64,000 bases of DNA from a virus: the UHGV virus genome UHGV-0098755, one strand, 5' to 3'. The notes below the pieces were generated by a model, which was not told where the DNA came from, ran no database searches, and saw only the letters and a list, made by a program, of their open reading frames with translations. Made by a program: the position numbers and the translations under genes. Shown one piece after another: positions 12,755 to 19,466 of the stretch (positions within the stretch are counted from its first letter, which is position 1; each line of letters begins with the position of its first letter).

Positions 12755-13924
12755 TTAAAAGTATTTTTTAAAACTCATCATAACTTTATCATCAACATCA
12801 TTATCAATCTGTGCAACAAGGTAAGATGACAGTTCTACTTCTTGTGGCGCGGATTGAACATTATCAGAATTAAGATATTCACGAATCCAAGGATATGGGT
12901 GTTTAACCGGAGCATCGGTAATTGGGCATGGAAGACCACACTGTTTCATACGAGATACAGTTAAGTAATCAATAAAGCTCCACATGCTATTTGTATTTAA
13001 TCCAGGAACATCGCCATCTTTAAATAAATGAACTGCCCAGTCTTTTTCTTGACGGTTAACTTCCATGAAAATATCAACTGCTTCTTGTTCACACTCTTGA
13101 GCAATTTTAACCCATTCATCACCATCAGTACCGGATTGAAGTTGACGAATAATATATTGAGTGCCTTTAAGGTGAAGCTGTTCATCACGAGCAATGAACT
13201 TCATAATCTTGGCATTACCTTCCATGATTTCCATGTTCTTATGGAAGTTAAAGGTACATGCGAAAGATACATAAAAACGAATAGCTTCCAATGCGTTGAT
13301 TACATGAAGGCAAAGATAAAGAGATTTCATTAATGCTCGTTTAGTACATTCAACAACTTTGCCTAACTCTTCTTTACGAAATCCTTCTGATAAAATTCCT
13401 TCATAATCTTCAACCGCATTCTGATATTCACGAGTCTTAACTAGAACATCATCATAATAACGACCAATAGATTCAGCACGTTTCATGATAGCTTTATCTA
13501 ATACAATCTCATCAAATACCTTTGACGGATCAGTATAAAGATTTCGCATGATATGAGTATATGAACGACTGTGAATAGTTTCACTAAAAGTCCATGTAGC
13601 AACCCATGTATCAAGACTTGGGTCTGAAATTAATGACATAAGTACAGCAGAAGGCGCACGACCCTGAATGCTATCCAAAAGTGATTGATACTTCAGATTA
13701 TTAGTAAAAATATCCTGCTGATATTGAGGAAGCTTATTAAATTGTGCAGCATCCATCATCAAGTTTACTTCTTCAGGACGCCAGAAAAATGACAACTGCT
13801 TTTCGGTTAAATCTTCAAAAACTTTATGACGTTGAATATCATAACGCGCAATACCAAGACCTGAACCAAAAAACATAGGTTCTTTTAAAACATCAACTGG
13901 ATTTGTATTAAAAACTGTAGACAT
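12755..13924 (-). CDS. nrdB: ribonucleotide reductase small subunit, uninterrupted (no intron)
   Basis: Continuous 389-codon ORF, MSTVFNTNPVDVLKEP..., ferritin-like RNR beta subunit. Confidence 0.95.
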   Translation of the reverse strand: MSTVFNTNPVDVLKEPMFFGSGLGIARYDIQRHKVFEDLTEKQLSFFWRPEEVNLMMDAAQFNKLPQYQQDIFTNNLKYQSLLDSIQGRAPSAVLMSLISDPSLDTWVATWTFSETIHSRSYTHIMRNLYTDPSKVFDEIVLDKAIMKRAESIGRYYDDVLVKTREYQNAVEDYEGILSEGFRKEELGKVVECTKRALMKSLYLCLHVINALEAIRFYVSFACTFNFHKNMEIMEGNAKIMKFIARDEQLHLKGTQYIIRQLQSGTDGDEWVKIAQECEQEAVDIFMEVNRQEKDWAVHLFKDGDVPGLNTNSMWSFIDYLTVSRMKQCGLPCPITDAPVKHPYPWIREYLNSDNVQSAPQEVELSSYLVAQIDNDVDDKVMMSFKKYF

Positions 13925-13958
13925 ATTATTCTCGCTTATTATAGGTTTAAATATTTAA

Positions 13959-14762
13959 TCACATATTATGTATAAGCACTTCAGTCTGAAATGATGCACC
14001 TTTCTTTTGCTTCCTATACATGGTTTCAAAATATTCAATTTTGAAATTATTAGAAAGGGCCCAATCTTTTAAAATATAATTATTAATATCGTCTGATAGA
14101 TTATTAGTGATAATAAATTTAGACTTTGACCGTTTAATTTTATCTAATAATTCTAATTCATCCTTTTCTTCCCATCCTGAATATTTAAATTTAGTAGAAA
14201 GATAAGGCGGGTCAATGAATAAATTTTTGTTTTCAAAATCTAAATCTCTGAATGATTTATTACTAAATGTAAATCGGTGTTGTCTATTTTTAAATTCAGA
14301 AAATTTATCCTGCTGAGACTTATTAAAAGAAGTTCTAGAATACTTGGCTCTATTGGCGAAAGCCGCGTTATAGTTCCCATTACTAGAAAATCGGATTAAT
14401 GAACTGAATGAAAATAAATGTAGAACATAAAGATATAGTCCGTTTTTGGTTTTATCGTATTCTTTTGACAGATTATAAAAAGGTGCTGAATCTTTGTCAT
14501 TCAAATTGAAGTCTTCAATAATTTGAACTATATCATTAATTGAAGATGATTTCATCTTTTTATACATGTCTATAAGAGGAGTATTAATATCATTACATAT
14601 AACATTTCTTTGACAATTCATAGAAAATCCAAGACCGCCACAAAAAGCATCCAAAACGGGCTTATCATCAAAGCGGTTTGAAAATTGTCTAATAAATGGC
14701 ATATACTTATGCTTTGCACCTGGATATGTTATGGCAGGTAGGTCTTTCATATTATTTCTCAT
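13959..14762 (-). CDS. Dam-family N6-adenine DNA methyltransferase paralog (267 aa)
   Basis: Motif X YPGAK, motif I LDAFCGGLG, NDI, motif IV DPPY; collinear similarity to the canonical Dam at 60725-61504. Confidence 0.85.
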   Translation of the reverse strand: MRNNMKDLPAITYPGAKHKYMPFIRQFSNRFDDKPVLDAFCGGLGFSMNCQRNVICNDINTPLIDMYKKMKSSSINDIVQIIEDFNLNDKDSAPFYNLSKEYDKTKNGLYLYVLHLFSFSSLIRFSSNGNYNAAFANRAKYSRTSFNKSQQDKFSEFKNRQHRFTFSNKSFRDLDFENKNLFIDPPYLSTKFKYSGWEEKDELELLDKIKRSKSKFIITNNLSDDINNYILKDWALSNNFKIEYFETMYRKQKKGASFQTEVLIHNM

Positions 14763-14769
14763 TTGTTAG

Positions 14770-14787
14770 TGACTCGTCCATGAGTCA
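14770..14787 (-). promoter_or_regulatory. stem-loop (UGACUC-loop-GAGUCA) in the 32-nt leader of the methyltransferase gene
   Basis: 6-bp inverted repeat between nrdA stop (14795-14797) and the methyltransferase ATG (14760-14762); no strong Shine-Dalgarno. Confidence 0.3.
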
Positions 14788-14794
14788 TATTATA

Positions 14795-17059
14795 TCATAA
14801 TTTACAGGATGAACAATCTTCAGCTTTTGGAGTTTCTATTTCATAATCATCAGTACCAGAACCATCACGGGTATTATGATAATAGAAATTTTTTCCGCCA
14901 AAATACCAGAAATACAAAAGGTCATCAATCATTATTGACATTGGAACCTTTCCTTTTGGAAAAATCTGCGGGTCATAGTATGTATTCGCTGAAGCTGATT
15001 GACATACCCATTTCAGCATAATAGCTACCTGCGTAAGATAAGGTTTATTACCTTTCTTAGCTAATTTCCACGTATAATCATAGAGGTCTATGTTATGTTC
15101 AATATTGGGCACGACTTGATTAAAGGAACCCTCTTTTGATTCTTTAACAGAGACTGGTCCACGTGGAGGCTCGATACCGTTTGTACTGTTAGAAACTTGG
15201 GAAGATGACTCACACGGCATAAGTGCTGATAATGTGCTATTACGGATGCCAAAGAGCTTAAGGTCTTCCCGCAGCGCCGACCAGTCACAAACGTATTTTG
15301 GAGCTGCGATTTGGTCAATCTTTTTATTGTACCAGTCGATAGGTAATTCGCCTCGAGACCAACGAGTGTCTGAATAATATTCGCAAGGTCCTTTTTCTTT
15401 GGCGAGCTTAATGGATGCTTTAATGAGTCCATACTGTAATCTCTCAAATAGTTCATGTGTTAAATCGTTAGCATCTTCATAAGAAGCAAAGTTACTTGCC
15501 AGCCAAGCTGCATAGTTGGTAACACCTACACCGAGGTTACGACGCTTTTTAGCTTTTTCTGCTTCAGGAACTGGATATCCTTGGTAATCCAAAAGATTAT
15601 CAAGAGCACGAACTTGAACTTCTGCCAATTCATTAATTTTATCTTGGTCTTGCCAATCGAAGTTATCCAACACAAATGCAGATAACGTACACAATCCAAT
15701 TTCAGCATCAGGGCTATTCACATCATTTGTTGGAATAGCAATTTCACAACACAAGTTACTTTGACGAATAGGTGCCTTTTCACGAATAAACGGAGTATAG
15801 TTATTCGTATTATCAATGAACTGTACATAAATCCTCGCTGTTCCTGAGCGTTCAGTCATGAGCAATTCAAACAGTTCACGGGCTTTAATACGCTTTTTAC
15901 GAATATTAGGGTCTTTTTCTGCGGCTTCGTATAATTCACGGAAACGGTCTTGGTCTTTAAAATAAGAATAATAAAGTTCGCCACCCATTTCATGCGGACT
16001 GAACAAAGTAATGTAGTCGTTCTTTCCAAAACGTTCCATCATCAAATCATTCAGCTGAACGCCATAATCCATATGACGGATACGGTTTTCTTCTACGCCT
16101 TTGTTATTTTTCAAAACGAGAAGATTTTCAACTTCCAAATGCCAAATAGGATAATAAGCAGTAGCAGCGCCGCCACGAATTCCGCCTTGTGAGCATGATT
16201 TAACGGCAGTCTGAAAATGTTTCCAAAAAGGAATAACACCAGTATGGCGTACTTCACCTGTGCCAATCTTAGAACCTTCGGCACGAATCATACCAACGTT
16301 AATGCCGATTCCAGCTCGTTTAGAAATATACTCAACAATTGAAGCGGAAGCCTTATTGATAGACTTCAGCGAATCACCTGCTTCAATAACAACACACGAG
16401 CTAAATTGCCGAGTCGGAGTACGACATCCAGCCATAATAGGAGTTGGCAGTGAAATCTGTCGAGTAGATACTGCTTCATAAAAACGAATAACATGTTTTA
16501 ATCTATCAACAGGTTCATCTTGATGCAATGCCATTCCAATAGTCATAAATGCAAACTGTGGAGTTTCATAAATTTGACCAGTGGTTTTATCTTTAACGAG
16601 ATATTTTTCTTTTAATTGCATCGCCCCGGAATAAGTAAATTCCATATCCCGCTCATGCTTAATTTTTGATTCTAAAAATGTAATTTCTTCTGCTGAATAT
16701 TTTGACAGCAGTTCAGGGTCGTATTTACCTTCATTTACGCAGTAAGAAATATGGTCAATAAATGAACGCGGTTCATACTGTCCGTAAACATGCTTACGAA
16801 GAGCAAACATTAAACAGCGTGCAGCTACGTATTGATAATCAGGCTCTTCAACTGAAATAGAATTCGCAGCAGCCTTAATGACAATAGTCTGAATGTCATC
16901 AGTTGTCATTCCATCACGGAGATATGATTTAATATTTTCATATAATTCATAAGGATCTACAGATGTTCCTTCGGCTGCCCAAGATAAAACTTTAATAATT
17001 TTTTGCGGGTCAAAGCTCTGAGAAACACCACTACTTTTGATAACATTAATTAATTGCAT
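14795..17059 (-). CDS. nrdA: ribonucleotide reductase large subunit
   Basis: 754 aa; [24 protein letters not shown]-cone N-terminus; C-terminal CSSC. Confidence 0.97.
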   Translation of the reverse strand: MQLINVIKSSGVSQSFDPQKIIKVLSWAAEGTSVDPYELYENIKSYLRDGMTTDDIQTIVIKAAANSISVEEPDYQYVAARCLMFALRKHVYGQYEPRSFIDHISYCVNEGKYDPELLSKYSAEEITFLESKIKHERDMEFTYSGAMQLKEKYLVKDKTTGQIYETPQFAFMTIGMALHQDEPVDRLKHVIRFYEAVSTRQISLPTPIMAGCRTPTRQFSSCVVIEAGDSLKSINKASASIVEYISKRAGIGINVGMIRAEGSKIGTGEVRHTGVIPFWKHFQTAVKSCSQGGIRGGAATAYYPIWHLEVENLLVLKNNKGVEENRIRHMDYGVQLNDLMMERFGKNDYITLFSPHEMGGELYYSYFKDQDRFRELYEAAEKDPNIRKKRIKARELFELLMTERSGTARIYVQFIDNTNNYTPFIREKAPIRQSNLCCEIAIPTNDVNSPDAEIGLCTLSAFVLDNFDWQDQDKINELAEVQVRALDNLLDYQGYPVPEAEKAKKRRNLGVGVTNYAAWLASNFASYEDANDLTHELFERLQYGLIKASIKLAKEKGPCEYYSDTRWSRGELPIDWYNKKIDQIAAPKYVCDWSALREDLKLFGIRNSTLSALMPCESSSQVSNSTNGIEPPRGPVSVKESKEGSFNQVVPNIEHNIDLYDYTWKLAKKGNKPYLTQVAIMLKWVCQSASANTYYDPQIFPKGKVPMSIMIDDLLYFWYFGGKNFYYHNTRDGSGTDDYEIETPKAEDCSSCKL

Positions 17060-17376: not shown

Positions 17377-17593
17377 ATTGTTTTTCCGTTAAAACAGTAA
17401 TATCGTAGTAACAGTCAGAAGAAGTTTTAACTGTGGAAATTTTATTATCAAAATACTCACGAGTCATTTTATGAGTATAGTATTTTTTACCATAAATGGT
17501 AATAGGCTGTTCTGGTCCTGGAACTTCTAACTCGCTTGGGTTAGGAAGTGTAAAAAGAACAACGCCAGAAGTATCTTTAAATCGTAAAATCAT
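17330..17593 (-). CDS. hypothetical protein (87 aa)
   Basis: ORF track; overlaps the preceding ORF by 47 nt, so one start may be mis-set. Confidence 0.5.
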
Positions 17594-17901
17594 ATTGCCA
17601 TTTTCCCTTTAATTGCTGGATGCGATTCATAATTTTCAAGGATAAAATCTTTCGGTTTCATGTATTCAGTTAACCAGTAAAGCTGTGTTTCGGTGTCACA
17701 ATTTCCAAACTCTATAGGCCAATCAATTTTAAGTTCACATAGTTCTTTAGGCTCACGACGTAAAATTTCTTTACATTGCTCAGTATGATTCATATAGATG
17801 TGAGTATTACCACCAGAAAATATCAAATCTCCTGGGATAAGATTACACATCTTAGCTACAATATGAACTAACGAAGCATATGATGCAATATTAAATGGAA
17901 G
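17590..17901 (-). CDS. td: thymidylate synthase, exon 2
   Basis: Encodes [21 protein letters not shown]...KGKMAI; the first codon follows the intron's terminal G at 17902. Confidence 0.9.
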
Positions 17902-18917
17902 CATTATGTTCAGATAAGGTCGTTAATCTTATCCCGGAATTATATCCAGCTGCATGTCACCATGCAGAGCAGACTATATCTCCAACTTGCTAAAGCAAGT
18001 TGTCTATCGTTTCGAGTCACTTGACCCTACTCCCTAAAGGGATAGTCGTTAGGCATTTATGTAGAACCAATTCCACTTATCAGATTTTACACGGTAAGTA
18101 ACTAATCCGGATGAAATTTCAAAATATCTAGCTGCATCAGCTGCACATTCAAAAATAATCCCATCACATGAAATCTTTTTAATATTATTAGGCTTTTTAC
18201 CTTTCATCTTTTCTGATATTTTAGATTTAGTTTTGTCTGAATGCTTATGATTAAAGAATGAATTATTTTCACCTGAACGATTTCTGCATTTACTACAAGT
18301 ATAAGCAGAAGCTTGTATGCGAACACCGCATTCACAAAACTTATGGGTTTCTGGATTCCAACGCCCGTTTTTACTTCCGGGTTTACCGTAAAGAGCTTTC
18401 CGACCATCAGCGCCAAGCTTAAGCATCTTAGCTTTAACAGTTTCAGAACGTTTCTTAATAATTTCTTCTTTTAATGGATGCACAGAATATGTATCACCAA
18501 ACGTTGCATCAGCAATATTGTATCCATTAATTTTAGAATTAAGCTCTTTAATCCAAAAATTTTCTCGTTCAATAATCAAATCTTTCTCATATGGAATTTC
18601 TTCCAAAATAGAGCATTCAAACACATTACCGTGTTTGTTAAAAGACCTTTGAAGTTTTATAGAAGAATGGCATCCTTTTTCTAAGTCTTTAAAATGCCTC
18701 TTCCATCTCTTTTCAAAATCTTTAGCACTTCCTACATATACTTTATTGTTTAAAGTATTTTTAATCTGATAAATTCCACTTTTCATAAATACCTCTTTAA
18801 ATATAGAAGTATTTATTAAAGGGCAGTCCTACAATTTAGCACGGGATTGTCTACTAGAGAGGTTCCCCGTTTAGATAGATTACAAGTATAAGTCACCTTA
18901 TACTCAGGCCTCAATTA
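17902..18917 (-). mobile_element. group I self-splicing intron of td (1016 nt) carrying the I-TevI gene
   Basis: Starts UAAUUGAGGCCUGAGUAUAAGGUGACUUAUACUUG... after exon-1 GGU; ends ...AUG before exon 2; the length matches my recollection of the T4 td intron. Confidence 0.9.
18049..18786 (-). CDS. I-TevI GIY-YIG homing endonuclease
   Basis: 245 aa, MKSGIYQIKNTLNNKVYVGSAKDFEKRWKRHF... GIY-YIG N-terminus, zinc finger and C-terminal DNA-binding region. Confidence 0.95.
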   Translation of the reverse strand: MKSGIYQIKNTLNNKVYVGSAKDFEKRWKRHFKDLEKGCHSSIKLQRSFNKHGNVFECSILEEIPYEKDLIIERENFWIKELNSKINGYNIADATFGDTYSVHPLKEEIIKKRSETVKAKMLKLGADGRKALYGKPGSKNGRWNPETHKFCECGVRIQASAYTCSKCRNRSGENNSFFNHKHSDKTKSKISEKMKGKKPNNIKKISCDGIIFECAADAARYFEISSGLVTYRVKSDKWNWFYINA

Positions 18918-19466
18918 ACCCAAGAAAACATCTACTGATCGTTGATACCATTGTAAATCAAGATAACCATTACGCACATTAAACTGATAGAACATATGAC
19001 AGGGCGGTAATGCCATTTGATTGATTTCAGCTGGATTCCATGCTGAAACGATTTGACGTCGATCAGTTGGTAATTTTTTAATACGATCAATAGTTTCAAC
19101 TAATTGATCCACACCACCGAAATCACGCCATTGTTTACCGTATATAGGACCAAGTTCACCACTATGATATCCTAGGTCTTTAGCCTGGTTTTCATAGTTA
19201 TCGTCCCAAATAGTTTTACCTTGAATAAGACTACCATGAGTGCGAAGACGTAAATCATTAACATTGGTAGAACCGGAAATAAACCATAGAAGCTCAGCAA
19301 TGCAAGCTTTCCAGGCGAGCTTTTTGGTTGTTACCGCAGGAAAACCTTTGGTTAAATCCCAACGCAATTTAGTACCGAACAAAGCAATTGTTCCTGTGCC
19401 TGTTCGGTCATCGGTTTCGTAGCCATTTTCAAAAATGTCTTTAATTAAATCTTGGTATTGTTTCAT
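18918..19466 (-). CDS. td: thymidylate synthase, exon 1
   Basis: 183 codons MKQYQDLIKDIFENGYE...QRSVDVFLG; the frame is closed by the intron's first UAA. Confidence 0.9.

Follow-up and report, generated by a model that had tools for sequence, protein, structure and literature searches.

Among the described DNA adenine methylases, the enzyme of phage T4 is the closest to the gene reported here. T4Dam (M.EcoT4Dam; PDB 1Q0S, 1YF3, 1YFJ, 1YFL) is a GATC-specific enzyme of the D12 alpha class, encoded by an orphan gene that lies between genes 56 and 61, and its role in vivo is still considered unclear in a review (PMC12707154). EcoDam (PDB 2G1P, 4RTJ and others), a host enzyme involved in replication and mismatch repair, and DpnM (2DPM) belong to the same family. 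The residues through which EcoDam contacts its target have been described: R124 reads the guanine of base pair 4, L122 and P134 touch base pair 3, Y119 intercalates, N120 hydrogen-bonds, and K9 and Y138 serve base pair 1, which is read less strictly (PMC4417163).

Another described system is comparable by its genomic location. MobE and related free-standing homing endonuclease genes occupy the intergenic region between nrdA and nrdB, and the gap of T4 holds mobE together with nrdB.1.

We report here a gene encoding a Dam-family protein (hereafter the methylase) in the nrdA-nrdB gap of the virus genome UHGV-0098755, of which a stretch of 64,000 nucleotides (hereafter the window) was analysed. 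The window also harbors a canonical T4-type dam gene (Table 1). The reading that we favour is that of an active stand-alone Dam-family DNA adenine methylase with a GATC-like target, a statement to which, taken as a whole, we give a probability of about 0.6; taken as a separate claim, an active DNA adenine methylase of the Dam family is highly probable. Its activity, expression timing, target sequence and protective role are what we infer from the observations below.

Table 1. Features of the methylase locus and of the canonical dam gene in the window.
Feature	Position	Strand	Basis and remarks
Methyltransferase ORF	13959..14762	minus	Program-made ORF, uninterrupted, 267 codons (267 aa)
Most likely methyltransferase CDS	13959..14750	minus	263 aa, begins MKDLPAITYPGAK; ORF, PF02086, homologue starts, dN/dS 0.04-0.19 in frame
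YPGAK, N-terminal motif, aa 13-17	14712..14726	minus	Alignment to T4Dam; Lys17 = T4Dam K11 = EcoDam K9
Motif I, FCGGLG (AdoMet binding, FxGxG), aa 40-45	14628..14645	minus	Read from sequence
NDI motif, aa 57-59			Read from sequence
Target-recognition hairpin, aa 119-138 (FSSLIRFSSNGNYNAAFANR)	14349..14408	minus	HMMER alignments to T4Dam and EcoDam, column statistics, AF2 pLDDT 85-92
Motif IV, DPPY (catalytic), aa 184-187	14202..14213	minus	Read from sequence
Methylase cassette, 820 bp	13949..14768	minus	Leader with GAG ribosome-binding site, gene and 10 nt past the stop; relative to empty-slot wV7
TATAAT (14789-14794) and 6-bp stem-loop (14770-14787; TGACTC-ATGGAC-GAGTCA)	14770..14794	minus	Directly past the nrdA stop
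nrdA, neighbour of the methylase	14795..17059	minus	ORF
nrdB, neighbour of the methylase	12755..13924	minus	ORF
Canonical T4-type dam, 259 aa	60725..61504	minus	Between gene 56 (dCTPase) and gene 61 (primase); TIGR00571 234.7 bits

Family, fold and motifs of the methylase

The encoded protein matches the Pfam family PF02086 (MethyltransfD12) with an E-value of 8.2e-24 and 85.1 bits (gathering cutoff 22) over profile positions 1-251 of 253, and this is the sole Pfam family that matches it at E-values up to 0.1. It is assigned to PHROG 56 (phrog_56, "DNA methyltransferase"), and GenBank already labels it "DNA adenine methylase" or "putative methylase" in several records; no publication dealing with it, or with T-even phages that carry both Dams, came up in a literature search. 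On the NCBIfam model TIGR00571 ("dam") it reaches 93.1 bits, under the curated cutoff of 114.85 and below the canonical Dam of the window (Table 1), which itself matches T4Dam (PDB 1yfj) over residues 1-259 with an E-value of 3.9e-173.

The two Dam proteins of the window align collinearly with 34% identity over 268 columns (BLASTP, E 5e-41). Given this identity and its other locus, the methylase is not the orthologue of T4 dam, the true orthologue being the canonical gene between genes 56 and 61. The gene likewise does not belong to a Type II restriction-modification system, its immediate neighbours being nrdA and nrdB in every carrier examined. Nor is it a mobE-like homing endonuclease, since it matches PF02086 only and its gene of 792-804 nt takes up the 820-bp cassette.

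Among solved structures, a sequence search gives T4Dam as the closest relative (E 4e-37), with EcoDam and DpnM at about 1e-5. The AF2 model, built on an alignment of homologues, has a pLDDT of 89.6 and a pTM of 0.88; Foldseek places T4Dam on top (TM 0.80-0.89), then EcoDam (0.70-0.80) and DpnM, and the model displays the Dam fold, that is, a Rossmann-type catalytic domain and a helical/hairpin DNA-binding domain. EcoDam and DpnM thus have family and fold in common with the methylase, but show an identity of about 16-18% in the structural alignment, and EcoDam further differs as a host enzyme from what is here a phage accessory gene. The likeness to T4Dam is closer and includes the D12 alpha-class fold, about 250 collinear residues and the shared motifs, as well as the status of orphan gene of a T-even phage and a GC content of 0.287 in both. 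Besides its locus and its sub-cutoff TIGR00571 score, the methylase differs from T4Dam by a short deletion past DPPY and by changes in and around the recognition hairpin that are described below.

In an alignment of 74 homologues, residues G42 and G43 of the cofactor motif and D184, P186 and Y187 of the catalytic motif are invariant, and both motifs are also invariant within the clade formed by the methylase and its nearest relatives. The cofactor motif, the hairpin and the catalytic motif follow each other in the same order as in T4Dam. Estimates of dN/dS are low between alleles (0.04-0.19) as well as between the window and relatives about 96% identical to it (0.036), and the gene is under purifying selection. 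It encodes an intact N6-adenine methyltransferase of the D12/Dam family. The true start is probably Met5 (ATG at 14750), which would give a protein of 263 aa, because codon 1 is ACG in the relative 236Ecol005PP and the versions of Klebsiella phages start with MKDL.

A sequence-only reading of this DNA had described a 267-aa ORF with the alpha-class motif set, aligned collinearly and at low identity with the T4-type Dam of the same window. The ORF is present, YPGAK, FCGGLG, NDI and DPPY can all be read in it, and the Pfam match and the BLASTP alignment agree with that description; the catalytic residues have not been lost. The coordinates it gave are those of the ORF, but they came without a strand, both methylase genes being on the minus strand, and the start probably has to be moved to Met5.

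The methylase has few close relatives. Among 5.8 billion proteins, its clade comprises four clusters at 90% identity (76-100% identical to it), everything else being at most 38% identical, and the best matches outside the clade are the Dams of T4-like phages. Similarly, an exhaustive HMMER search of 1.84 billion representatives returned a single 50% representative for the clade and a next match at 34% identity (E 1.5e-28), and scans of IMG/VR for wider relatives found none. From these sequence comparisons, the methylase is best explained as belonging to a side branch, deep and isolated, of the Dam lineage of T4-like phages.

The nrdA-nrdB slot and its cassette

With the gene and its flanks as megablast query, the methylase was found in the slot in 8 of 905 phage records. 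A further carrier, Klebsiella phage PhiKpNIH-6 (Marfavirus, 77% amino acid identity), was recovered by tblastn, bringing the carrier genomes in the phage collection to nine. Every recovered context is nrdA-nrdB, in Tequatrovirus, Gelderlandvirus CF-SP2, fDHCT2, Marfavirus PhiKpNIH-6 and three metagenomic contigs (L002-L004), and across the three genera and the metagenomic contigs the slot is occupied at 76-81% identity. The methylase is best explained as a rare accessory gene of long standing, bound to the nrdA-nrdB gap, which is prone to recombination.

In an evenly spread sample of the 905 matching records, the gap is mostly empty, the flanks being contiguous in T2H, AR1 and wV7, and in a substantial minority it holds a homing endonuclease (mobE in T4, RB59 and RB10; "homing endonuclease" in VEc20, JEP6 and KMB39). 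The methylase resembles MobE and its relatives in occupying the identical slot, in its patchy distribution and in its spread among near-identical genomes with sharp mosaic boundaries. Unlike them, it has no nuclease domain and shows no evidence of self-mobilisation, and would be cargo moved through the homology of its flanks.

The junctions of the cassette were determined by visual comparison of the intergenic sequences of the window, of wV7 (nrdA-nrdB gap of 52 nt) and of six other carriers. The insertion point lies between a conserved TATAAT-plus-hairpin element and the ribosome-binding region of nrdB. This element occurs in the empty-slot wV7 and in all carriers, and is part of the nrdA-nrdB intergenic region, outside the cassette; one compensatory change from A-U to G-C was seen in its stem in a Klebsiella-phage contig. 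No T-run follows the stem-loop, and the terminator scan made no call there. A mobile-element signature or direct repeats at the cassette ends were looked for and rejected, as the ends display only similar ribosome-binding and start contexts (GAGAAATAATATG and GAGAATAATATG) and a trivial AAC microhomology. The initiation contexts of the methylase (14751-14763, minus strand) and of nrdB in carrier phages (13925-13937, minus strand) are near-identical, and the start region of nrdB co-varies with the presence of the cassette, since the empty-slot wV7 has GCGGAAAATTTATG before nrdB.

The three genes nrdA, methylase and nrdB lie on one strand, 32-44 nt and 34 nt apart, and no terminator-like site was detected by the terminator scan in either gap flanking the methylase. 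For these reasons the methylase would be co-transcribed with nrdA and nrdB in a pre-replicative nucleotide-metabolism unit. A scan for sigma-70 promoters gave 29 hits versus 22 ± 5 in shuffled sequences, which is uninformative because the DNA is AT-rich.

The nrdB gene is intronless in the window, and that of BGP is interrupted, at the equivalent of about 13257-13264, by an intron that carries a homing endonuclease; just upstream of this point (about 13260-13420), the identity of the window to BGP and L004 falls to 64-71% amid 96-100%, a dip that looks like a co-conversion tract. The nrdA gene of 236Ecol005PP is split by the insertion of a "putative mobile endonuclease" at about the equivalent of 15691-15711, an insertion that the window lacks. 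Further along, the thymidylate synthase gene is split (17590-19466, minus strand) into exon ORFs of 183 aa and 104 aa, with an ORF for a 245-aa GIY-YIG endonuclease between them (18049..18786), which is the td intron/I-TevI arrangement as in T4.

Two types of methylase alleles were distinguished. Type A, with the hairpin SSLIRFSSNGNYNAAF, is found in the window, in four Tequatrovirus records about 96% identical to it (T4_ev240, NR1, ECO07P2 and 236Ecol005PP) and in the Marfavirus-like versions; type B, with the hairpin SSMLKFSKDDKYIASF, is found in BGP, contig L004, CF-SP2 and fDHCT2. They differ most in the N-terminal DNA-binding half and in the hairpin, including an Arg to Lys change at the position that contacts G4. 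Diversifying selection on the hairpin was rejected, as pN/pS in sliding windows of 30 codons peaks at 0.63. The nrdA genes of BGP and L004 are 99% identical to that of the window, but their methylases only 80%: up to the nrdA stop the nucleotide sequences agree at 97-99%, at precisely that point the agreement drops to 71-75%, and it rises again toward the 3' end of the methylase. This sharp drop, together with the high synonymous divergence between alleles (dS 0.65-0.89), points to the exchange of long-separated alleles through conserved flanks and not to fast protein evolution.

The GC content of the methylase (0.287) is below that of nrdA (0.383) and of the window (0.353), and places it among the lowest 1% of windows of 800 bp. 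Low GC was rejected as an indication of foreign origin, since the canonical dam of the window has the same GC content and the GC3 of the methylase (0.231) equals that of nrdB. These equalities and the pattern of allele exchange argue against a recent foreign acquisition.

Most related records also lack the canonical dam gene, which is matched in about a third of them (no more than about 200 of 586). Its co-occurrence with the methylase was assessed with a chimeric query joining the methylase locus and the dam gene of the window: BGP is the only one of the eight carrier records with both genes, the other seven lacking canonical dam. Results of tblastn (457 places in 455 records) are consistent with BGP as the single double-Dam record, since PhiKpNIH-6 is one of the two records hit twice, its "second" place being the 3' end of the same gene, split by the linear ends of the record. 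In T4_ev240, for instance, genes 56 and 61 are separated by 267 bp (L005 2051-2317) devoid of dam. The canonical gene thus accompanies the methylase in one of nine carriers, or in two of ten once the window is counted. Compared with the overall frequency of about one third, and in carriers that are phylogenetically clustered, this is indistinguishable from independence, and neither mutual exclusion nor linkage was retained. Both Dam genes are accessory and show no association, and the methylase is the only Dam in most carriers, which makes the present phage an unusual case with its two Dam genes.

The GATC content of the window was also considered. Out of 256 tetramers, GATC is the most under-represented, with 68 sites and an observed/expected ratio of 0.32 under a second-order Markov model or 0.33 from base composition; the next-lowest palindrome is CTAG, at 0.66. 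Such depletion is notable in a phage with two Dam-family enzymes. It also counts against a GATC-like target of the methylase, since a further enzyme acting on GATC would find few sites to modify and bring no evident benefit.

Several claims of the sequence-only reading concern this locus. It had described the slot as that of mobE in T4, found the gene AT-richer than nrdA and seen no adjacent nuclease partner, all of which agrees with the present data, the nearest nuclease gene being the conserved denA beyond nrdB. The homology search likewise indicates that the methylase is not a core gene at this position. Its proposal of an acquired orphan methyltransferase stands as regards the orphan status, but not as a recent foreign import, given the same slot in three genera at 76-81% identity, nearest relatives that are T4-like Dams and a GC content equal to that of canonical dam. 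It was also right that this phage encodes two Dam-family enzymes, but the pairing is incidental, BGP being the only one of the nine carriers that also has canonical dam.

Recognition residues and likely target

The hairpin of the methylase can be compared residue by residue with those of EcoDam and T4Dam. In the HMMER alignment, F119, S120, L122, R124 and A134 fall on identical EcoDam numbers, so that the numbering of both hairpins coincides (Y119/F119, N120/S120, L122/L122 and R124/R124, EcoDam residue given first), with Ala in place of Pro134 of EcoDam. The same residues correspond to F111, S112, M114, R116 and P126 of T4Dam, K17 and R138 corresponding to K11 and R130. Residue types match T4Dam at the K11, F111, S112, R116 and R130 positions, and the methylase differs by Leu for Met114 (as EcoDam), by Ala for Pro126 and by an insertion of six residues, AKYSRT, directly after R138 and the hairpin. 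Across an alignment of 116 homologues of T4-like Dams, the residue at the R116 position never varies, that at the K11 position is kept in 115, and the F, S and R130 columns are nearly invariant. On the contrary, the P126 column is variable (N in 53, P in 42, A in 10 and S in 4). This position is Ala134 in the methylase of the window and Ser in two of the four clusters of the clade (P0002 and P0003).

Because the residues aligned with the conserved base-contact positions are kept (Lys17, Phe119, Ser120, Leu122, Arg124 and Arg138), a GATC or near-GATC target appears, on balance, the most likely one, and a non-GATC specificity is not favoured. Ala134 is not diagnostic in this respect, since the Pro position is unconserved among T4-like Dams generally. 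Discrimination at the third or first base pair may nevertheless be loosened, because Ala replaces a Pro that packs on the third pair and because of the six-residue insertion past the hairpin, which could add or alter contacts beside the R130-equivalent. The hypermethylating dam-h change of T4 is reportedly a replacement of Pro126 by Ser (P126S), attributed to Miner, Schlagman and Hattman in 1989, at the position of Ala134 of the methylase; if so, some loosened specificity is plausible. Specificity may also vary within the clade, since the type B allele has Lys at a position that is occupied by Arg in all 116 T4-like Dams. This Lys could matter for the target of type B enzymes; the allele of the window has Arg.

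By homology, the methylase would act as an orphan S-adenosylmethionine-dependent DNA N6-adenine methyltransferase in the manner of T4Dam. Its beta-hairpin would enter the major groove, where the aromatic Phe119 would intercalate, and the target adenine would be flipped to the DPPY pocket and then methylated. At the level of populations, the cassette would move among phages by homologous exchange via its conserved flanks, and the double-Dam state of this phage would most likely result from ordinary reassortment.

A second Dam locus in T4-like phages

Other accounts of the locus have to be weighed against this reading. The enzyme might have a different or broadened specificity, either naturally Dam-h-like or directed to a new motif, and protect the phage where the canonical Dam cannot, for instance against a type III or an adenine-sensitive host system, which would explain the presence of two Dams. 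This account, which is that of the sequence-only reading, is tentative and we find it unlikely, although several features suggest it: Ala134 (Ser in P0002 and P0003) replaces the Pro that contacts base pair 3 in EcoDam, six residues are inserted past the hairpin, identity to T4 Dam is 34% with a TIGR00571 score under the cutoff, divergence between the two old alleles is greatest in the hairpin, where Arg gives way to Lys, and in the N-terminal half that binds DNA, and GATC sites are few in the genome. However, the remaining aligned contact residues are conserved in the allele of the window, the Pro position is unconserved among T4-like Dams, and the hairpin bears no signal of diversifying selection (maximum pN/pS 0.63). 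Moreover, the methylase is the sole Dam in eight of the nine carrier genomes and is therefore not generally a complement to canonical Dam. Also unlikely is the proposal that the whole clade represents a naturally relaxed or re-targeted Dam, marked by Ala or Ser at the reported dam-h position and by an extra loop, whose two ancient alleles (Arg/Lys) would have different targets.

The opposite account is a redundant passenger, in which a GATC isomethylase, gained through recombination with a carrier phage lacking dam, would have no selective effect in the double-Dam genome. The lack of association between the dam loci (both in two of ten carriers, window included, against about a third expected) and the mosaic boundaries at conserved flanks, which indicate that the cassette moves by homologous exchange, are in line with it. 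We nevertheless consider it improbable, as strong purifying selection acts clade-wide, also when the window is compared with its relatives of 96% identity, and speaks for a function in carriers generally, although redundancy in this one genome would be compatible with it. The same selection, with dN/dS of 0.04-0.19, tells against a decaying or non-catalytic remnant, or a protein other than a DNA methylase such as an RNA m6A enzyme or a DNA-binding regulator. The score below the curated dam subfamily cutoff is compatible with such a protein, and EcoDam has been reported to bind non-GATC sites, with possible implications for methylation-independent repression (PMC4417163). However, the ORF is full-length, none of the cofactor and catalytic motifs is damaged or varies, and the confident AF2 model matches the structures of T4Dam-DNA complexes end to end, which leaves this account very improbable. 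An active stand-alone Dam-family methylase with a GATC-like target remains our preferred reading.

Should the target simply be GATC, the methylase would be an ordinary isomethylase. A specificity other than GATC would make it a minor new entry among the counter-defence enzymes of phages, and would be new in the Dam family. If the relaxed or re-targeted reading were true, the slot would provide T-even phages with an exchangeable cassette of anti-restriction specificity, and single-, double- and no-Dam phages would be available to test the role of adenine methylation in hydroxymethylcytosine-containing phages. The methylase is also a further instance of exchangeable cargo in the nrdA-nrdB gap, which acts as a hotspot for it. 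T4-like phages have two independent, individually dispensable Dam loci, and the natural isolates with neither, either or both of them form a comparative panel for methylome and host-range work.
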